DNA of 8,372 nucleotides from a virus. Lineage: Duplodnaviria > Heunggongvirae > Uroviricota > Caudoviricetes. The position numbers and the translations under genes were made by a program. Positions 1 through 6,720 of this stretch are shown piece by piece. The notes under the pieces are model-generated. The model ran no database searches and was not told the DNA's origin. It saw only the letters and a program-made list of their open reading frames with translations. The stretch spans positions 1 to 8,372 of the IMG/VR virus record IMGVR_UViG_2519899564_000011. One strand, given 5' to 3'. Numbering within the stretch: position 1 is the stretch's first letter; each line of letters begins with the position of its first letter.

Positions 1-27
1 ATCACTCTCCATCGATGATTTTTTGGG

Positions 28-210
28 TTACCAATAATATTTGATAGTCGCCATAATTATCGGTAGCAACGCGCAGACAACTGAAAACCGTAAAACAAAA
101 CCTACTCCCAATATGCGATATCCATTATTCCAGAGAACAAAACTCATCATCAGAAGGAATCCATGAAAAATCGCGACAAGAAATAAACTACAAATAAATG
201 CATTTACCAT
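28..210 (-). CDS. small hydrophobic protein (60 aa, two predicted TM segments), hypothetical
   Basis: ATG at 210; GAGGGG about 10 nt upstream on the minus strand; product is mostly hydrophobic; AT-rich. No recognisable family. Confidence 0.3.
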   Translation of the reverse strand: MVNAFICSLFLVAIFHGFLLMMSFVLWNNGYRILGVGFVLRFSVVCALLPIIMATIKYYW

Positions 211-269
211 CGGTACTTACCCCTCGCTCTTAATCCAATAAAAAAGGGTTTGCTTCACTGAACACTCCT

Positions 270-455
270 TTATTTTTTATGCCTGTAACCCCATTCTTCC
301 AGCAACCTTGCGGCGTACCACCCAAGAAACAAAGGAAAGAACATTACAATGAGATATTCCCCGCCACGGTCAATGTTCGAAATTGACCAGATTACGATGT
401 AACCAGTGCAGGACAGGAATATTACAAACCCCAAAAAGCTACTTCTTCGACTCAT
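270..455 (-). CDS. small hydrophobic protein (about 61 aa), hypothetical
   Basis: The ORF track starts at a GTG at 461; I prefer the ATG at 455, which has AAGGAG 5 nt upstream. Two hydrophobic stretches. No recognisable family. Confidence 0.35.
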   Translation of the reverse strand: MSRRSSFLGFVIFLSCTGYIVIWSISNIDRGGEYLIVMFFPLFLGWYAARLLEEWGYRHKK

Positions 456-465
456 GCTCACTCCT

Positions 466-681
466 TCACTTTAAATCCAGACTCCGGATTATTCTGTTGC
501 GCTGAAACTCATTGTTGAGTTTGAACAACCGTCGAAGGACACGGTCACGCGGATAGCGTCGTGCAGCAGGTGAATGCTCATACAACTCATCAATCGGCAA
601 ACTGGACGATGAACGATACCGATACCAACGCACCAACTCTTCACGAAAATTAGCCCTGACAAGCTCAGCTATCGTACTCAT
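466..681 (-). CDS. hypothetical protein, nin-region position downstream of the replication genes
   Basis: ATG at 681 with GGAGG 9 nt upstream on the minus strand; 71 aa, basic, Arg-rich; lies immediately after a terminator-like hairpin that follows the helicase gene. Confidence 0.45.
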   Translation of the reverse strand: MSTIAELVRANFREELVRWYRYRSSSSLPIDELYEHSPAARRYPRDRVLRRLFKLNNEFQRNRIIRSLDLK

Positions 682-710
682 TTCTTAAAGCCTCCAATTC
701 CCTCTCCCCC

Positions 711-742
711 AAATAAAAAGGCCTGCGATTACCAGCAGGCCT
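711..742 (-). terminator. intrinsic terminator after the helicase gene (tR2-like position)
   Basis: Inverted repeat AGGCCTGC (719-726) / GCAGGCCT (735-742) with an 8-nt loop; on the minus strand it is followed by TTTTTATTT (revcomp of 710-718). Confidence 0.5.
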
Positions 743-767
743 GTTATTAGCTCAGTGATGTAGATGG

Positions 768-2144
768 TCATACGTCAGCCCCTTGTGCATATCGTCTGCC
801 ACGCGAAGCAGGTGCATTTGATGCTGTGCAAATCTGTCTGGCTTCATCCTGGTCACATGCAACAAAGTGTCCGTTACAGAACCGCTGGTAAACCGTACCA
901 AGTGGGCCAAACCGGTTTTTCGTCACAATGATTTCAGCAAATGGTGCGGCGCTACTGTTCTCGTCATATACCGCTTCCCGATAGAGCATGATGATTGAGT
1001 CTGCGTCCTGCTCAATGCTTCCTGAATCACGCAAATCTGCGTTTGTCGGGCGTTTGTTTGGTCGCTTCTCAACATCGCGCGAAAGCTGACTTAGGGAGAT
1101 AACAGGCGTTTTCAGGTCTTTCGCCATCGCCTTCAGGCTTCCTGAGATGTGAGCAATTGCGAGGTCGTTGCGGTCTGCTTTCGGCTTCTCAATCAGGCCA
1201 AGATAATCCGCCATGATGAGTGACAGGTTTGGATTTTCCTGTTTGTTCCGCTCTGCGATTGAGCGAATTTCTTCTACCGATAACCGCGAGGCATCGACTA
1301 CCCATACATCCAAATCTGCAAGCTGACTCATGCCGTTAGCAACACGCGCCCAGCCTTCGTCATCCATCGATGCAGGATTTCGCAGTACGCTAACCGACAT
1401 CCTCCCGGCGTTGGCAATGCTCCGCTCTGCAATCTGCAATGCGCTCATTTCCATCGAGAAAATCAACACTCCGCGCCGGACGTCAGAACCAGGAATAACG
1501 CGGCTTGCAACACCTTCGGCAATCTTCAGCGCCAGTTCGGTTTTCCCCATACCAGGACGAGCGGCGATAATCACCAGGTCTTCCGCGTTCATCCCTCCGG
1601 TGATGGCGTCAAGTTCTTCGATTCCGGTCTTCAGGGTATCTGACTCTTCTCCGTTCCTCAGACGCCTGTCAAGCGTGTCAGTGTAGTCAGTGATGATTTC
1701 CCCTAACCGTACAGGTTTAACCTCGTCACGGGGCTTTCTGATGGCTGAGAGACGCTTTACAAGCTCGTCCATCGCCTGACTCGATGTATCGATGGTTCCG
1801 CTCTGAATTGGTTCACGCATTTCGTCCATGATTTCCAGCACCAGACGGCGGTGATAGTTATCCGCGACCATTCCGGCATATCCCTTCAGGTTTGCGGCAC
1901 TCGGGCAGTTTTTGCTGGTCATCAGGATTGACGTGAAATGCTCCTCTCCGCACGCCTCGGCAACCATCAGCGCGTCGATTAGGTTTCTGTTTCTCGCCTG
2001 CTTACGGATAACTTCGAAGGCTTTCCGGTAGAGCGGAATTGAAAACGCTTCCGGCTCCAGCGTTGCCAGAACGTCGCTGGCGGTTGGTGTTAATCCACCA
2101 ATCAGCAAGCCACCGATAACGCTCGCTTCGATATCCTGTCTCAT
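768..2144 (-). CDS. replicative DNA helicase, DnaB family (phage P22 gene 12-like, lambda P position)
   Basis: 458-aa ORF; Walker A motif ARPGMGKT; DnaB-like N-terminal domain and RecA-fold C-terminal region; start codon overlaps the upstream O-like stop (ATGA at 2141-2144). Confidence 0.9.
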
Positions 2145-2962
2145 GCAATCCCCCTGTCTGCAAACTTCCCTTCCCGAACTCCCGTTAACGAGTCTTCCCT
2201 CAGCAGGTAATCAAAATCTGCCGTCCAGCCCGTGTCGTTGTCTCCGAAGTAAAACGGCTTGGCCTGATGCACAAACGCCCTGACATACGCTCTGAAACCG
2301 TCCACGTTTGGCGTTTTCAGTTGCGGGATGATTTTCTTCAGGCGGCGTTTTCGTTTCTCGTTGACCGCAACAGCGTGTGGAAGTCTGTCACCGACTTCGG
2401 TGTTGTAGGCGTTCAGGAAGGATTCGTAGTCGATTCGTTCTGCCTTGCGACGTTCAGGTTTAACCTGCCCATCGCCGCCCCCGTTAGGGGGTAAGGGGGT
2501 ATTTGTATTTATTGTCTTTTGTATATTGTCTTTTGTGTTTAGCTGACTTGGCTTATACCCATTAGCCGACTCGGCTAATGTTTTATTAGCTGTTTTAGCT
2601 AATGTTAAGCTGTCCTGGCTAATCCACTGAGAAACCACCTTGTTCACTCCGATTTTCACGCCATCAGCAATGAGGAATTTACGCTCAATAAGCTGGCGCT
2701 TGGCAGCGCAAACATGAGTGTGATGAATACCTGTCATGGCTGCTATCTGCGTGTTTGTGAGTCGATCCATCGGCTTATTGAATCCGTATGTCTTGCGCAT
2801 GATAGCGAGCATCACCTTCATCTGCCGGACGGTTAAATCAGCCATCAGCAGACTGTCGATAATCTCGTTAGCAACGCGCATGAAACCATCTTCGGTATCT
2901 GCCACGCGATGCTCCACGACCTCCAGTTGAGGCCTGTAATCAGCTAACTTAACGACGCCCAT
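2141..2962 (-). CDS. replication initiation protein, lambda O-like
   Basis: 273 aa; N-terminal region ([31 protein letters not shown]) resembles lambda O as I recall it (LTKRQFKVLLAILRKTYGWNKPMDRITDSQL); an iteron array and AT-rich tract sit inside the gene as in lambda ori. Confidence 0.85.
2497..2623 (-). repeat. origin of replication inside the O-like gene: four iterons plus AT-rich tract
   Basis: Four roughly 19-bp repeats with internal dyad symmetry TTAGC-N7-GCTAA at about 2538-2556, 2561-2579, 2585-2603 and 2603-2622; adjacent AT-rich tract 2497-2540 containing ATTGTCTTTTGT twice; GC hairpin CCCCCGTTAGGGGG at 2476-2489. Confidence 0.6.
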
Positions 2963-3110
2963 GTTTCACTCCTGCTTTGGCTAGTCTGTAAACACCAACA
3001 AGGCGCTCTGCGAACGCCCTGTTATTTGCTGCGGCTACCACTAATCCCTCAGGTGAATCAGGGTGTCGAATCTCTTCTTTTTCCTGGTATTTCTTACGAC
3101 GTTTTGTCAT
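2949..3110 (-). CDS. small basic hypothetical protein (53 aa) between cII and O
   Basis: Not in the ORF track (under 60 aa). ATG at 3110 with AGGAG 5-6 nt upstream on the minus strand; product [53 protein letters not shown]; stop overlaps the O-like start. Confidence 0.35.
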   Translation of the reverse strand: MTKRRKKYQEKEEIRHPDSPEGLVVAAANNRAFAERLVGVYRLAKAGVKHGRR

Positions 3111-3145
3111 AATTACTCCTGTGGATTGATACAGTCTTTCTACAA

Positions 3146-3424
3146 TCAGGCCTCAAAACTGTTGCCGCAGTCTTGAGGCTTTTCTTTTGTCAGCACCATG
3201 GCTACTTTCTTTGCCAGCTCCGCTAATTCCTCGTCTTCAACACCCCACTCCAGCACAGCCAGAAGCATGGCCATCTTTGGGATAAAGCTGTCTTTCCATC
3301 GCGAAATTTGCGATTCATTGATCCCTAATGCATCAGCAACCTTTCGCTGACCACGTACAGCAATTCGATTCAGGATGTTGCTTGTAATTGCATTCGCTTT
3401 CTTGCGAGTACTTGTAAGTTCCAT
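3146..3424 (-). CDS. cII: transcriptional activator CII
   Basis: From the ATG at 3424 (AAGGAAA about 9 nt upstream) the product contains GINESQISRWKDSFIPKMAMLLAVLEWGV, close to lambda CII as I recall it (GVDKSQISRWKRDWIPKFSMLLAVLEWGV). The ORF-track start at 3511 is rejected because it runs through nutR. Confidence 0.85.
   Translation of the reverse strand: MELTSTRKKANAITSNILNRIAVRGQRKVADALGINESQISRWKDSFIPKMAMLLAVLEWGVEDEELAELAKKVAMVLTKEKPQDCGNSFEA
3148..3189 (+). terminator. plus-strand intrinsic terminator antisense to the cII 3' end (oop-RNA-like)
   Basis: Stem GCCTCAA (3150-3156) / TTGAGGC (3173-3179) followed by TTTTCTTTTG (3180-3189) on the plus strand, while cII is on the minus strand ending at 3146. 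Confidence 0.5.
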
Positions 3425-3481
3425 ATGTAAGTATTTCCTTAACAAATAAGAAGTTATGCGCATCAACTTATGCGCGTTGTA

Positions 3482-3526
3482 TTCCCGCATTTCGGCGGGA
3501 ATGAGGACCATGACTGTTAAAGAGCG
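3482..3526 (-). promoter_or_regulatory. nutR (boxA plus boxB) between cro and cII
   Basis: Minus-strand CGCTCTTTAACA (revcomp of 3515-3526) matches the boxA consensus; minus-strand TCCCGCCGAAATGCGGGAA (revcomp of 3482-3500) is a 5-6 bp stem-loop and is identical to the boxB candidate at 5223-5241. Confidence 0.7.
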
Positions 3527-3533
3527 GTGTTAC

Positions 3534-3758
3534 TTATGCTGCCTGATTCGGTTTTGGAAACAGGTGTGGCAAATCGGGGCGAATTTCGTAAGCCTTGATC
3601 TGCCCTCCAGTGGCGTTAACGATGGCGGTAACTTTCTCTGGAGAGACCAACCCGCCTTTCAGCCATTTGTGTACTGCTGGCTGCGTTACACCACACTTGT
3701 CGGCAAGGCGCTTTTGGCTACCGACAATTTTCAAGGCTCGTTGAATTACTAAATTCAT
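3534..3758 (-). CDS. cro: Cro-like HTH repressor
   Basis: First gene leftward from the operator region, divergent from cI; HTH-like segment GSQKRLADKCGVTQPAVHKWLK; preferred start ATG at 3758 has AGAGGT 6 nt upstream, whereas the ORF-track start at 3779 has no SD. Confidence 0.7.
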   Translation of the reverse strand: MNLVIQRALKIVGSQKRLADKCGVTQPAVHKWLKGGLVSPEKVTAIVNATGGQIKAYEIRPDLPHLFPKPNQAA

Positions 3759-3789
3759 GAGCATACCTCTTGTGGTCATTACTTATAAC

Positions 3790-3860
3790 CAAAGATAACT
3801 CAAGTTATAAAAAATAGCAATAACCTTTGTTATTTTACTTTGGATAACCGTAGTTATAGA
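3790..3860. promoter_or_regulatory. OR operator region with divergent promoters (PR leftward, PRM rightward)
   Basis: Three 14-bp palindromes ATAAC-N4-GTTAT at 3795-3808, 3820-3833 and 3844-3857, spaced about 24-25 bp. Candidate PR on the minus strand: -35 TTGCTA (3820-3815), 17-bp spacer, -10 TATCTT (3797-3792). Confidence 0.65.
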
Positions 3861-3869
3861 TTTGTGGGT

Positions 3870-4577
3870 ATGAAAACATTCGCAGAAAGACTAAATGCAG
3901 CCATGAGCTCAGCAGGGGTATCACAATCACAGCTTGCTGACATGGTTGGAATATCTCAGCCAGCCATACAGAAGATGTCGTCCGGTAAAACAAACGGATC
4001 TCGCAAGATGGTTGAATTAGCCAATGCTTTAAAAGTGCGCCCTGAATGGCTTAGTTCTGGTATTGGTGAAATGAGGGATGGTGCACATGAAGAACCATCC
4101 AATGTCCGTGATTCATCTTTAAAAGCTGTGGTATGGGAAGACATTAAAAGAAACGATGACGAGTTTGTTGCGTTGCCTCTTCTTAACGTTTCGCTTTCAG
4201 CTGGAAGCGGTAGCTGCGAGCTAGAGGAATCATCGGAGTTCTCTTTGGTTTTCAGAAAGCACTATCTGAAAAAGATGGGAGTATCTGAAAGATCAGCCAA
4301 GCTAGTTAGGGTTGTAGGGCAAAGCATGGAACCAACGCTTCACGATGGCGATGTTGTTGGTGTTAACACGCAAGATACCACAATCAGAGATGGTAAAACC
4401 TACGCTATTTGCCAGTCTGATTTGTTACGAGTAAAAACATTAATCGCCACCCCTACATCGGTGATAATCAGATCAATAAATCGCGAAGAGTACCCGGATG
4501 AAGTAATGGATAGAGATGAATTTCATGAAACCGTAAGGATTATTGGCAGAGTATTCTGGTCGTCTCATAGTTGGTAA
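3870..4577 (+). CDS. cI: CI repressor (N-terminal HTH, C-terminal S24 LexA-like autopeptidase domain)
   Basis: HTH region QSQLADMVGISQPAIQKM; Ala-Gly candidate cleavage site in LSAGSG; Ser in GQSMEP and Lys in LRVKT fit the LexA/cI catalytic dyad. ATG at 3870 preferred over the ORF-track TTG at 3840, which lies inside an operator. Confidence 0.85.
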   Translation: MKTFAERLNAAMSSAGVSQSQLADMVGISQPAIQKMSSGKTNGSRKMVELANALKVRPEWLSSGIGEMRDGAHEEPSNVRDSSLKAVVWEDIKRNDDEFVALPLLNVSLSAGSGSCELEESSEFSLVFRKHYLKKMGVSERSAKLVRVVGQSMEPTLHDGDVVGVNTQDTTIRDGKTYAICQSDLLRVKTLIATPTSVIIRSINREEYPDEVMDRDEFHETVRIIGRVFWSSHSW

Positions 4578-4617
4578 CCGATAATCAGAAGAAGACTTAC
4601 GGAAGTGCGGAGGGATA

Positions 4618-4914
4618 ATGGAATTTCTGATAGTTTTTGTTGTTGTTTTGGTCATCATTCTTTTTGTTTTGCTAAGCATTAGTAAAAAGCTATCTCAAAT
4701 GATTGAACATAGCTCTAATCGTGCAAAAGAAGAAGAGCATATAATTGATATAAAAGAGATTCTCTCTGATATAAAAATCACATTAGATGAAATAAAATAC
4801 ACAACAGATCTAATTGAACAGTATAAAATACCAACCCCAAACGAGAGAAAAGCAATAGATCAATATCGTATTGACTTAGAAATCGACGAAATGCTAAGCA
4901 AAAGAAAAGACTAA
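4618..4914 (+). CDS. hypothetical single-pass membrane protein in the rex position (cI-linked moron)
   Basis: ATG at 4618 with GGAGGG 5 nt upstream; 98 aa with an N-terminal hydrophobic helix (LIVFVVVLVIILFVLLSI) and a charged helical C-terminal region; strongly AT-rich; about 40 nt after the cI stop and followed by a strong terminator. Confidence 0.55.
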   Translation: MEFLIVFVVVLVIILFVLLSISKKLSQMIEHSSNRAKEEEHIIDIKEILSDIKITLDEIKYTTDLIEQYKIPTPNERKAIDQYRIDLEIDEMLSKRKD

Positions 4915-4919
4915 AAACA

Positions 4920-4946
4920 CCCGGCCTCAGCGCCGGGTTTTCTTTT
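4920..4946 (+). terminator. intrinsic terminator ending the cI-moron transcript
   Basis: GC-rich stem CCCGGC (4920-4925) / GCCGGG (4932-4937) followed by TTTTCTTTTCC. Confidence 0.7.
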
Positions 4947-5067
4947 CCTGCCGTTCACCACCCAATCAACCATCCTCATCATAGACAAGCATCAAGCCAA
5001 AGGTAACACCTTCACCCCGCACGCAAGCCCTCAAACACCAATCAATCAGCAACATTTACAAAAATAA

Positions 5068-5153
5068 AATACCTTTGTTATCCATCACTTATAACCTATT
5101 CACCATAAAATATAAATTAGGTTATTGACCACACCTATAACCTAAGTTATCTT
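5068..5153 (+). promoter_or_regulatory. OL operators and PL promoter
   Basis: ATAACCTAAGTTAT (5137-5150) is a perfect match to the OR palindrome; ATAAATTAGGTTAT (5112-5125) has one mismatch; a degenerate copy sits at 5068-5081. Candidate PL: -35 TTGACC (5125-5130), 17-bp spacer, -10 TATCTT (5148-5153), the same -10 hexamer as the PR candidate. Confidence 0.6.
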
Positions 5154-5199
5154 TAAGCCATCAGCAGGACGCTGGAAGCCAAACGGAACAGATTGGCAG

Positions 5200-5241
5200 G
5201 CTCTTTAACATTGATGGGATTGTCCCGCCGAAATGCGGGAA
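5200..5241 (+). promoter_or_regulatory. nutL (boxA plus boxB)
   Basis: GCTCTTTAACA (5200-5210) matches boxA; TCCCGCCGAAATGCGGGAA (5223-5241) is a stem-loop identical to the nutR boxB; located between PL and N. Confidence 0.7.
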
Positions 5242-5347
5242 CCAAAGAGTAGTTGGCTTTGGGGTGACGTGAAGTGCAGCTGCAAGACGGCAACCGGAAG
5301 ATAAGCACGCGGCGCGTCACCGCCAAAGTCAATCATCGGAGGTCAAC

Positions 5348-5620
5348 ATGACAGTAGTCATTACATATCTGGCTGACGATAACGCCAGAAATCGCCGCAG
5401 AGCACGCAGACAGGCTCAACGTGAACAGGCAATGCAAGAACAGCGATTGGCACGAAAAATTGCGCTAAAGCTCTCTGGTTGCGTCAGAGCAGATAAAGCA
5501 GCATCACTCGGAAGCCTTCGCTGCAAGAAGGCAGATGAATGCAGTGGAAGTATTTGCCTGCCAAACGTAGCCATTTACGCGGCAGGCTACCGGAAATCAA
5601 AACAACTGACGGCGAGGTAA
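5348..5620 (+). CDS. N: antitermination protein N (P22 gp24-like)
   Basis: First gene after PL/nutL; GGAGG 5 nt upstream of the ATG; N-terminal arginine-rich motif NARNRRRARRQAQREQ; C-terminal LPNVAIYAAGYRKSKQLTAR resembles the P22 gene 24 product as I recall it. Confidence 0.8.
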   Translation: MTVVITYLADDNARNRRRARRQAQREQAMQEQRLARKIALKLSGCVRADKAASLGSLRCKKADECSGSICLPNVAIYAAGYRKSKQLTAR

Positions 5621-5622
5621 TT

Positions 5623-5802
5623 ATGGGTCAGGAAGAAAAATATGAGCTTAAAAAGCTCATTGGAGAAGACGCCATAGAAGAAATTGCAGCATTAACAACA
5701 GCTATAAAGAATATTAGGTATGCGCTAAATACGCTTATCTCCTCATGCGACAAAAATAGCAGGGAATTTTTTGATACTTGGCGCAGCTCTAGGAATAGTT
5801 GA
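5623..5802 (+). CDS. small hypothetical protein (59 aa)
   Basis: ATG at 5623 sits 2 nt after the N stop, with GAGG 5 nt upstream. The ORF-track version (5539) starts inside N and is probably over-extended. No recognisable family. Confidence 0.4.
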   Translation: MGQEEKYELKKLIGEDAIEEIAALTTAIKNIRYALNTLISSCDKNSREFFDTWRSSRNS

Positions 5803-5986
5803 TGCGGCAACGCTTCACCTAATTACTCATGACGATATTCTTATTGAGCCGTATGAAACATTACTGCTTGTCAGGCAAAAAATGGCTGATGCCGCAGCAA
5901 ATGGAGACCTTCAACTTTACATCGACTTAAGGAAAGTATTAAGGCGAATGGTCAAAACTGAAGGAGATATCCCCCTGACAAAGTAA
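5771..5986 (+). CDS. small hypothetical protein (TTG start; alternative ATG at 5879)
   Basis: The ORF-track start is TTG with AGGGAA 4-5 nt upstream; the only in-frame ATG is at 5879. AT-rich; start uncertain. Confidence 0.3.
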   Translation: MILGAALGIVDAATLHLITHDDILIEPYETLLLVRQKMADAAANGDLQLYIDLRKVLRRMVKTEGDIPLTK

Positions 5987-6016
5987 GGGGGTGAAGAGGC
6001 CATTTCAGGAATAAAA

Positions 6017-6511
6017 TTAATAATTTGTCAGCGGCGGTACATATACAGGCTTAGGGTCTGGCGCTCTATACATCCGGTATTCATTCTTACAGCGAGGACA
6101 TGAATGCACAAAGAACCCATTAGATTTTATAGTAACCGTGCTTGGTTGAAGTATCGATATTTTATGTTCGCCGAAGCAATGTGCACAAAGGTTATGCTGC
6201 TGAATAGAAGGATCGGAATGACTCTTAGGTCGATACACGACAGAACCACCTTCAGTTGTATGAAGTTCATAATTCTCAGCTTGCACAACAAACATCTTGA
6301 TTTTTCTATTTTCATCTCGAAGCTTCATTGCGATCTCCTTCTCGGCCTGATAAAGGCCAGAGAGCTCCGCATTAAGCATCTGTAAGTCAGTTATTCTTTG
6401 GTGTAGATCACCAATAGCTTTAGCGATAACAGCATCGTCTCTGGTTTCTTTTATTGTCTTCAGCAGATCATAAGCCTGTTTCGCGGCAGTTATACCAGAT
6501 AACACATCCAT
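6017..6511 (-). CDS. hypothetical coiled-coil plus C-terminal zinc-ribbon protein, antisense to the PL operon
   Basis: 164 aa, ATG at 6511; N-terminal half is heptad-like and charged; C-terminal CAHC...(26 aa)...CPRC pair looks like a zinc ribbon; AT-rich; the only minus-strand gene in the early-left region, with a repeat-rich upstream region. Confidence 0.6.
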   Translation of the reverse strand: MDVLSGITAAKQAYDLLKTIKETRDDAVIAKAIGDLHQRITDLQMLNAELSGLYQAEKEIAMKLRDENRKIKMFVVQAENYELHTTEGGSVVYRPKSHSDPSIQQHNLCAHCFGEHKISILQPSTVTIKSNGFFVHSCPRCKNEYRMYRAPDPKPVYVPPLTNY

Positions 6512-6720
6512 ATAAATTACTCTCTTACTGTAGGGGTAAGAGGATTTTACTATTTTTCTCGCTGTAGGGGTACACGAGAACCACCGAGCCTGATGTGGTT
6601 AAAAGACAGGCATACGAATAAACACTGCACTGTGTATTCATTCCAACGAGTGAATACACGGAGCAATGTCGCTCGTAACTAAACAGGAGCCGACTTGTTC
6701 TGATTATTGGAAATCTTCTT

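Follow-up and report, generated by a model that had tools for sequence, protein, structure and literature searches.

A probable CI/Cro operator set of ATAAC-N4-GTTAT sites in the immunity region of a Stx1a-converting phage

The window analysed here, the whole stretch of 8,372 nucleotides at positions 1 to 8,372 of the IMG/VR virus record IMGVR_UViG_2519899564_000011, is 100% identical to the Stx1a-converting phage Stx1a_10051. Gene order and Pfam families (Phage_CII, Phage_rep_O, DnaB_C, Peptidase_S24 and N_peptide) support a lambda-like layout, in line with the reading given in an earlier note on this DNA. The minus strand holds a P/dnaB-like gene, O, cII and cro, and the plus strand, beyond the operator region OR, holds cI (Peptidase_S24 and HTH), a small ORF and a terminator, beyond which lie the operator region OL with its promoter PL, nutL and N. 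OR is situated between the divergent cro and cI genes and OL 5' of N, about 1.3 kb away. This immunity region is widespread in E. coli O26:H11 and also occurs in other lineages; of 5,426 complete genomes, 105 carry copies that are at least 99% identical. The two regulatory genes are as follows.

3534-3758, minus strand: cro, 74 aa; lambda-Cro/YdaS family, with a CI-like recognition helix, TQPAVHKW
3870-4577, plus strand: cI repressor gene, 235 aa; 434-like HTH domain and S24 autopeptidase domain

The HTH-S24 repressor is thus encoded next to a small divergent Cro. CI matches Peptidase_S24 (1.4e-17) and HTH_3 (7.9e-7) in Pfam, its S24 domain contains an Ala-Gly site within LSAGSG, and residues 4-67 match the 434 repressor (E 8e-8 to 7e-7), such that its five-helix HTH_3 domain is homologous to 434 R1-69 (E 7.7e-8 to 6.9e-7). 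The recognition helix, SQPAIQKM, occupies residues 29-36. Cro matches the Xfaso 1 Cro structure 3bd1 (E 5e-5) and YdaS_toxin (1.1e-17), and its HTH matches the N-terminal domain of CI (E 7e-8).

Repeated palindromes occur in the gap between cro and cI and again 5' of the leftward early operon. The three 14-bp palindromes of OR, and the perfect and one-mismatch copies at OL, have the coordinates and letters that the earlier note had given them.

3785-3789, no strand: extra ATAAC half-site in the cro leader, 10 bp from OR1
3795-3808, no strand: OR1, ATAACTCAAGTTAT, ATAAC-TCAA-GTTAT; in the PR spacer, its last 3 bp being the TAT of the PR -10
3820-3833, no strand: OR2, ATAACCTTTGTTAT, ATAAC-CTTT-GTTAT; 1-bp overlap with the PR -35, other side abutting the candidate PRM -35
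3844-3857, no strand: OR3, ATAACCGTAGTTAT, ATAAC-CGTA-GTTAT; in the candidate PRM spacer, 1-bp overlap with the PRM -10
5112-5125, no strand: OL2, ATAAATTAGGTTAT, ATAAA-TTAG-GTTAT, one mismatch (left half, position 5); 1-bp overlap with the PL -35
5137-5150, no strand: OL1, ATAACCTAAGTTAT, ATAAC-CTAA-GTTAT, perfect; in the PL spacer, its last 3 bp being the TAT of the PL -10

The window contains four perfect copies of ATAAC-N4-GTTAT (starting at 3795, 3820, 3844 and 5137) against 0.01 expected, six sites with at most one mismatch against 0.24 expected, and 13 with at most two mismatches against 3.3 expected. The extra half-site at 3785-3789 is present in the window's lineage and in PA28, is absent from HK639-type relatives, and is probably without function.

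These sites lie over the -10 and -35 elements of the predicted divergent promoters PR and PRM and of the predicted PL.

3792-3820, minus strand: PR, -35 TTGCTA (plus-strand 3815-3820), 17 bp, -10 TATCTT (plus-strand 3792-3797); predicted, read from the sequence
3834-3862, plus strand: candidate PRM, TTTACT, 17 bp, TAGATT; proposed on the basis of its conserved position
5125-5153, plus strand: PL, -35 TTGACC (5125-5130), 17 bp, -10 TATCTT (5148-5153); predicted by promoter scan

Predicted PR would serve cro, cII, O and P, and predicted PL would serve nutL and N. PR and PRM each score only 8 of 12 against the sigma-70 consensus, and PR is missing from the scan list because this score falls just below the scan threshold. 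Two further claims of the earlier note are borne out: PR and PL share TATCTT and a 17-bp spacer, and the operators overlap the -10 and -35 elements as in lambda, with OR1 and OL1 ending in the TAT of a -10 and OR2 and OL2 sharing one base with a -35. No Shine-Dalgarno sequence precedes the cI ATG (3870), and the predicted PRM start falls at, or 1 nt ahead of, this codon, so that the cI mRNA may be leaderless as it is in lambda.

Conservation was examined in 125 loci, 120 of which are IMG/VR contigs from a motif scan; that set was picked for two adjacent perfect sites, and the apparent invariance of OR within it is inflated accordingly. Relatives were also retrieved by homology, independently of the motif, and include PA28, S. 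Kent 1-2-1 and HK639 (71-78% DNA identity) as well as Enterobacter and Kluyvera prophages; in each, the three OR sites recur with unchanged spacing but with different central bases and spacers. In 96 of the 125 loci the CI N-terminal domain is at least 55% identical and Cro at least 60% identical to those of the window. The 42 distinct OR regions form an ungapped alignment in which the half-sites are invariant, and in every relative the centre of OR2 lies 25 bp from that of OR1 and 24 bp from that of OR3. Promoter positions are likewise conserved, in contrast to the drifting spacers and central 4 bp. Among the 42 regions, the complement of the PR -10, AAGATA, is present in 40, the PR -35 is TGGACA at an unchanged position in 33, the PRM -35 is TTTACT or TTTACA in 37, and the PRM -10 is TA[TGA]ATT in 41; all 96 loci place the cI ATG 11-12 nt from OR3.

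OL was absent from the OR scan pattern. Among 49 distinct OL regions, OL1 is perfect in 48 and the PL -10 is TATCTT in 46, with TTGCCA, TTGACC and similar sequences as the -35. OL2 has exactly one mismatch in 49 of 49 relatives, always at position 5 of its left half, and lies 25 bp from OL1; since OL pairs were chosen at no more than one mismatch and a spacing of 23-27 bp, information comes only from the lack of perfect copies and from the spacing being exactly 25 bp. The CI C-terminal domain has been exchanged between relatives (about 41-50% overall identity), and the CI N-terminal domain (75-100%), Cro and the operators move as a unit.

The switch shares much with that of phage 434, in which 14-bp palindromes, conserved in their outer bases and variable in a centre that is not contacted, form three OR sites over divergent PR and PRM, and in which the recognition helices of CI and Cro are likewise similar. 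The two CI N-terminal domains are homologous (E 8e-8), and the glutamine pair for operator position 1 is conserved: Gln19 and Gln30 of the window's CI, invariant among relatives, align with 434 Gln17 and Gln28, which read the A at position 1 in 434 complexes. The 434 half-site ACAA and the window's ATAAC agree in length of site, in the A at position 1 and in AA at positions 3-4, but the sites do not fit the 434 pattern ACAA-N6-TTGT. Position 2 is T in the window and C in 434, with CI Pro31 replacing 434 Gln29, and position 5 is a conserved C, with Lys35 replacing 434 Gln33. As T stands at position 2 in every site, the specificity is not that of 434. Other differences are that the window's Cro belongs to the lambda-Cro/YdaS family rather than to the 434 Cro fold, and that all three OR sites, unlike those of 434, have perfect half-sites.

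The arrangement of the sites is that of lambda, with OR1 in the PR spacer and -10, OR2 at the PR -35 beside the PRM -35, OR3 over PRM, OL1 and OL2 over PL, nutL and nutR flanking the region, TTGC-N6-TTGC within the 5' end of cII, and a cI start that is probably also leaderless. Lambda differs in having 17-bp sites with an unrelated half-site instead of 14-bp sites, in the 2.4 kb that separate OR and OL, and in carrying rexAB where the window has a single small ORF.

Operator sets of 14-bp sites also occur in the Salmonella phage UPF_BP1, the coliphage APC_JM3.2 and the HK022-like ST104 and 4A7, which have the same switch layout, homologous CI N-terminal domains (50-57% identity) and homologous Cro proteins, but half-sites of A(C/A)AAC, ATAGC or ATACG. 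Across these phages the half-site co-varies with the recognition helices of both proteins. QPAIQK in CI and QPAVHK in Cro pair with ATAAC; QAAIQK and QAAVQK pair with A(C/A)AAC (UPF_BP1); QPSVWK and QPSVWA pair with ATAGC-N4-GCTAT (APC_JM3.2); and QPTIWR and QPTVWR pair with ATAGC or ATACG (ST104 and 4A7). A change from Pro to Ala at helix position 3 accompanies T to C or A at operator position 2, and a change from Gln-Lys to Trp-Lys or Trp-Arg accompanies A to G or C at position 4. It is this co-variation that suggests binding of CI and Cro to the sites, and the matching helix changes (QAAIQK, QPSVWK and QPTIWR) mean that UPF_BP1, APC_JM3.2 and ST104/4A7 are presumably heteroimmune to the window phage.

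Could the palindromes instead be chance features of promoter DNA, or the sites of another protein such as a host factor or an antirepressor? Both regions are A+T-rich intergenic DNA and the operators are putative, yet none of 200 shuffled windows reached four perfect copies, 50 kb of the source phage contain no perfect copy outside OR and OL, the half-sites stay constant while adjoining bases drift, and half-sites co-vary with the helices of CI and Cro. We find this explanation hardly credible. A different concern is that the sites might belong to a classical immunity group (imm21/P22, H-19B, HK022, 933W or BAA2326) and be in no way distinct, which we consider highly unlikely. The imm21 identity was suggested by PA28, which has operators of the window's family together with an N (MVTVIWKESKG...) and boxB that we take to be phi21-type. 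Phage 21 reportedly shares the operator specificity of P22; the P22 c2 N-terminal domain, however, matches the window's CI weakly (E 0.0097), the 18-bp P22 sites differ from those found here, and inspection of OR and OL by eye showed no half-site of P22 type. The imm21 identity was rejected, as CI is not P22 c2-like and the operators are not of P22 type.

A further lead was H-19B, as the window represents a Stx1 phage of the O26:H11 type and that serotype is also the origin of H-19B. The N proteins of the two phages differ, however: N of H-19B has 127 aa and the arginine-rich motif RSRRRER (PMC3526286), that of the window 90 aa and NARNRRRARRQ, and the lead was dropped. Chen et al. (2005) describe a resemblance between the E. 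coli pckA upstream region and H-19B OR3; that upstream region has no ATAAC-N4-GTTAT, its best matches having three mismatches, a comparison made with pckA rather than with the letters of H-19B OR3. In the HK022-like ST104 and 4A7 the sites are ATAGC/ATACG and the helix is QPTIWR, the BAA2326 operators are unrelated to those of the window (PMC5977221), and the database clusters of CI, Cro, N and orf98 have generic names only, which for CI and Cro also speaks against a classical group. The P22/21, HK022-type and BAA2326 identities are largely refuted.

The proposal in the earlier note that the sites represent a distinct immunity specificity holds against lambda, 434 and P22, because the half-site differs, but the specificity is not new. 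Comparison with known groups sets it apart from P22/21, HK022-type phages and BAA2326 and matches it to PA28 and HK639, which share the ATAAC-N4-GTTAT half-sites, the 25/24-bp spacing and the CI helix SQPAIQKM; the motif is also carried by Enterobacter and Kluyvera prophages and by at least 120 IMG/VR contigs. The CI N-terminal domains of PA28 and HK639 are 91% and 85% identical to that of the window, their Cro proteins are 84-85% identical, and their operators differ in the central bases, as well as in one half-site base of PA28 OR2 (GTTGT). HK639 also differs in its CI C-terminal domain, which is unrelated in detail (41% overall identity), and in having put RNAs in place of N. Judging from these likenesses, the window phage, PA28 and HK639 are probably identical or cross-reacting in immunity. 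The HK639 operators are unannotated, and its GenBank record marks another pR (TTGGGT-17-AGTAAT), which was rejected in favour of TGGACA/TTGCTA-17-TATCTT because the spacing is not kept in the window, where the same elements are 14 bp apart. A literature search covering the motif, HK639, Stx1 operators and Cro half-sites found a sole listing, in which these palindromes appear as putative PA28 operators (Yin et al., 2015; BMC Genomics, Table S5); a search for binding, footprint, transcript-mapping or immunity data on this phage or members of the group found none in the literature covered. In the Yin table the OR and OL labels are swapped and the third OL site is a different one.

The third site of OL is less clear. 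The degenerate copy described in the earlier note is present as stated, but it is weak as an operator, and the relatives point as much to a second position.

5068-5081, no strand: degenerate OL3 candidate, AATACCTTTGTTAT, AATAC-CTTT-GTTAT; two mismatches, centre 44 bp from that of OL2
5091-5104, no strand: alternative third OL site, ATAAC half at 5091-5095, right half degenerate here (TCACC); centre 21 bp from that of OL2

Whether OL has two working sites only, with 5068-5081 no operator and an ancestral site at 5091 decayed to a half-site, seems to us evenly poised. Phage 933W has been reported with two OL sites. Sites with two mismatches are within the background of the window, and a lone one such as 5068-5081 is not significant by itself, because about 0.04 are expected per 100 bp; in most of the 49 OL regions this site has two or three mismatches, and its 44-bp distance compares with 24-25 bp for all other pairs. 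In 23 of the 49 relatives, HK639 with ATAACTTATGTGAT among them, the 14-mer homologous to 5091-5104 has a single mismatch; ATAAC is retained at position 5091 in 44 and displaced by 1 bp in the remaining five, and the different choice of site in PA28 by Yin et al. (2015) also favours two working sites. On the other hand, the GTTAT half of 5068-5081, its only well-conserved half, and the A-tract ahead of it are maintained, spacings of 21 and 23 bp resemble the others, and a half-site can still bind with cooperativity. The upstream OL site could also be read over 18 bp as ATAAA-N8-GTTAT, but this was discarded, the geometry being incompatible with the other sites.

Taken together, the sites very probably serve as the operators, OR and OL, of an immunity switch of lambda type that both CI and Cro read, and their identity as an ordinary lambdoid CI/Cro operator set of a Stx1 phage is well supported. 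We postulate that CI dimers and Cro dimers both bind the 14-bp ATAAC-N4-GTTAT, each monomer placing its recognition helix (SQPAIQK in CI, TQPAVHK in Cro) on one ATAAC half-site. CI, with its 434-like HTH domain and a presumably RecA-sensitive S24 domain that would allow SOS induction, would at OR1/OR2 and OL1/OL2 mask the spacer, -10 and -35 of PR and PL, thereby keeping cro-cII-O-P and N off. At OR2, abutting the weak PRM -35, CI would probably activate PRM, and at OR3, over the PRM spacer and -10, it would exert negative autoregulation; Cro would use the same sites with the opposite preference. With perfect half-sites throughout OR, the order in which its sites are filled must depend on the centre and on cooperativity. 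G+C is more abundant in the OR3 centre than at the other two OR sites (among the relatives' OR regions the four central bases hold on average 2.57 G+C at OR3, 1.31 at OR1 and 0.98 at OR2), and the non-contacted centres, A/T-rich in OR1 and OR2 and G/C-rich in OR3 as in 434, would set this order together with cooperativity at the fixed 25/24-bp spacing.

As a clean case of the lambda/434 paradigm, the switch involves no new mechanism and adds little scientifically. It governs, however, the induction of a Stx1 prophage common in E. coli O26:H11, and knowledge of its operators makes it possible to predict homoimmune co-resident prophages, to design PR/PL reporters and experiments on CI titration, and to correct the annotation of LC744178, the SH2026Stx1 cI and the HK639 pR, which are un- or mis-annotated. 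It is tempting to speculate, with some doubt, that the phages compared here form a natural specificity series, in which CI and Cro, which belong to different fold families, acquire one or two helix substitutions in parallel and the switch is thereby retargeted. If a few helix residues suffice, the recognition code would be simple and testable, and new immunities could emerge when two proteins and five or six sites change in concert.

The 2.3-kb core of the region (window 3100-5400) is 100% identical to the Stx1a-converting phage Stx1a_10051 (LC744178, whose record carries no annotated genes), and the cro-cI segment recurs at 99% identity or more in 105 of 5,426 complete E. coli genomes, O26:H11 str. 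11368 among them. Two matches to the cro-cI region occur in each of the E. coli genomes NZ_AP027159.1 (strain 2313) and NZ_CP025328.1 (ExPEC XM), which suggests double lysogeny by phages with the same or related immunity. The window holds a standard lambdoid early region, its named genes identified by ORFs and Pfam matches:

768-2144, minus strand, DnaB-like helicase
2141-2962, minus strand, O
3146-3424, minus strand, cII
3534-3758, minus strand, cro
3795-3808, 3820-3833 and 3844-3857, predicted operators OR1, OR2 and OR3
3870-4577, plus strand, cI (HTH_3 and Peptidase_S24)
4618-4914, plus strand, 98-aa ORF
4919-4938, plus strand, intrinsic terminator
5112-5125 and 5137-5150, predicted operators OL2 and OL1
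5348-5620, plus strand, N

The 98-aa ORF, present on at least 1,000 contigs, encodes a hydrophobic N-terminus, has no Pfam family and occupies the rexAB position between cI and the terminator; it probably shares one transcript with cI in the lysogen.

An earlier note had proposed six sites of an ATAAC-N4-GTTAT family at OR and OL, some of those at OL imperfect, and on re-reading and a mismatch scan of the window all six positions proved exact. The window has four perfect copies (0.01 expected; none of 200 shuffles reached four) and six sites with at most one mismatch (0.24 expected), and in 50 kb of the source phage the only perfect copies are the four at OR and OL. The predicted sites are a real, well-supported lambdoid operator set of 434 design.

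PL was found by promoter scan as TTGACC-17-TATCTT (5125-5153), and PR, on the minus strand, has identical geometry (TTGCTA-17-TATCTT, plus-strand 3820 down to 3792) and scores 8/12, slightly below the scan threshold, so that the proposed TATCTT -10 elements and 17-bp spacers are both present. OR1 and OL1 occupy the respective spacers and provide the TAT of the -10, and OR2 and OL2 overlap the -35 elements by one base, bearing out the suggested lambda-like placement of operators on the predicted promoters. A candidate PRM (TTTACT-17-TAGATT, 3834-3862) adjoins OR2 and is overlapped by OR3; its transcript would start at or beside the cI ATG, before which no relative compared has a Shine-Dalgarno sequence.

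Homology searches with DNA or protein gave relatives in whose selection the motif played no part; all of them carry three OR sites at the same spacing, with half-sites that are the same or differ by one substitution, whereas spacers and 4-bp centres vary. DNA identity to the window is 75-78% for the Stx2a phage PA28 and for S.Kent 1-2-1 and 71% for coliphage HK639; the prophages of Enterobacter bugandensis and Kluyvera with three OR sites were reached with the CI N-terminal domain as query. Scanning IMG/VR for the motif gave at least 120 contigs with the operator pattern, and 96 of 125 fetched loci encode homologues of both proteins, with identities of at least 55% for the CI N-terminal domain and at least 60% for Cro. 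The 42 distinct OR regions of these loci can be aligned gap-free, with invariant half-sites and centre-to-centre distances of 25 and 24 bp, an invariance partly built in by choosing loci with two perfect adjacent sites; the link to CI and Cro homologues, the third OR site and the promoter hexamers were unselected. OL was absent from the scan pattern. Among 49 distinct OL regions, OL1 is perfect in 48, TATCTT is found in 46, and OL2, for which up to one mismatch was allowed, has a single mismatch at left-half position 5 in all.

The degenerate third OL copy of the earlier note (5068-5081) lies where it was placed, 44 bp from OL2, but is a weak operator candidate: the window has 13 two-mismatch sites against 3.3 expected, so a lone one is not significant by itself, and most relatives show two to three mismatches in this copy. 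At 5091-5095, a conserved ATAAC begins another 14-mer, which in 23 of 49 relatives is an operator with one mismatch (HK639: ATAACTTATGTGAT) and in the window is degenerate. OL here may therefore comprise just two strong sites and, besides these, one or two that are weak.

CI has an N-terminal domain homologous to R1-69 of the 434 repressor (E 8e-8), and the Gln19 and Gln30 of this domain, invariant in the alignment, stand opposite 434 Gln17 and Gln28, which in the 434 complexes recognise A at position 1 of the operator. Pro31 and Lys35 take the place of 434 Gln29 and Gln33, and positions 2 and 5 of the operator are not those of 434. Although Cro is a member of the lambda-Cro/YdaS family, its HTH resembles the CI HTH (E 7e-8). 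The recognition helices of both proteins co-vary with the half-site across related phages, the strongest indirect evidence that CI and Cro would both read the sites.

Recognition helices and operator half-sites in related phages
Window, PA28, HK639: CI QPAIQK; Cro QPAVHK; ATAAC
UPF_BP1: CI QAAIQK; Cro QAAVQK; A(C/A)AAC
ST104, 4A7, RAH1 (HK022-like): CI QPTIWR; Cro QPTVWR; ATAGC / ATACG
APC_JM3.2: CI QPSVWK; Cro QPSVWA; ATAGC-N4-GCTAT

In prophages of Rahnella, Xenorhabdus and Mixta, more distant CI relatives (N-terminal identity 57-63%; helices QPSIWK, QPAIWR, VPSIWK) accompany 14-bp sites that are asymmetric, for example ATAAC-N4-GGTAT or TTAAC-N4-GGTAT. Since none of the OR half-sites has a mismatch, the order of affinity at OR would have to stem from the central 4 bp and cooperativity. 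Across the OR regions compared, the mean number of G+C among the 4 central bases is 2.57 at OR3, 1.31 at OR1 and 0.98 at OR2, and a G+C-rich operator centre weakens binding by 434 repressor.

Elsewhere in the early region, nutL (5200-5240, plus strand) and nutR (3483-3525, minus strand) carry the same boxA (GCTCTTTAAC) and the same boxB hairpin (TCCCGCCGAAATGCGGGA), which has a 5-6 bp stem and a GAAA-containing loop. The 90-aa N has an arginine-rich motif, NARNRRRARRQAQ, that differs from that of H-19B and, to our knowledge, is unlike those of lambda, phi21 and P22. Within the 5' end of cII, TTGCTTGTAATTGC (3378-3391, plus strand) forms TTGC-N6-TTGC oriented toward cI, like the CII-activated PRE of lambda in both placement and form; as 0.7 matches are expected by chance and this is the sole one in the window, it is only the position that suggests PRE. 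A direct repeat, TTATGCGC-N6-TTATGCGC (3454-3475, plus strand), lies between cII and nutR.

Putative PA28 operators, ATAACCTAAGTTAT, ATAACCACGGTTAT, ACAACAATTGTTAT and ATAACTCATGTTAT among others, were listed by Yin et al. 2015 (PMC4587872, Table S5), where the OR and OL labels are swapped. In the HK639 record (HM208537), the annotated pL agrees with our PL and the annotated pR (2745-2773, TTGGGT-17-AGTAAT) differs; we rejected the latter, as its spacing is not kept in the window, unlike TGGACA-17-TATCTT, which overlaps OR1 and OR2 and is conserved across the operator family. The SH2026Stx1 CI, 98% identical to the window CI, was assigned to clade V by Fagerlund et al. 2022. RefSeq starts this cI internally (570 nt), the full 235-aa ORF (NC_049919, 1853-2560) being intact, and therefore YP_009907967.1 was described as a CI without an HTH domain (Fagerlund et al. 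2022); the HTH-less CI looks like an annotation artefact.

Comparison with characterised immunity groups, as the earlier note had advised, gave no match: the P22/21 group is excluded by the weak match of CI to c2, the HK022-type group by the ST104 and 4A7 operators, and the BAA2326 group by differing operators. H-19B, compared through its N, has a different N protein. Database names of the window proteins are generic only, and our literature search found no experimental work on ATAAC-N4-GTTAT specificity. The suggested distinct specificity thus stands in that the half-site differs from those of textbook phages, but not as a novelty, since it is common to a large prophage group and had already been predicted in one relative; the operator set is of low surprise. 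Relatives have swapped the C-terminal domain of CI (overall identity 41-50%), while its N-terminal domain remains together with Cro and the operators, which is the behaviour expected of an immunity-specificity module.
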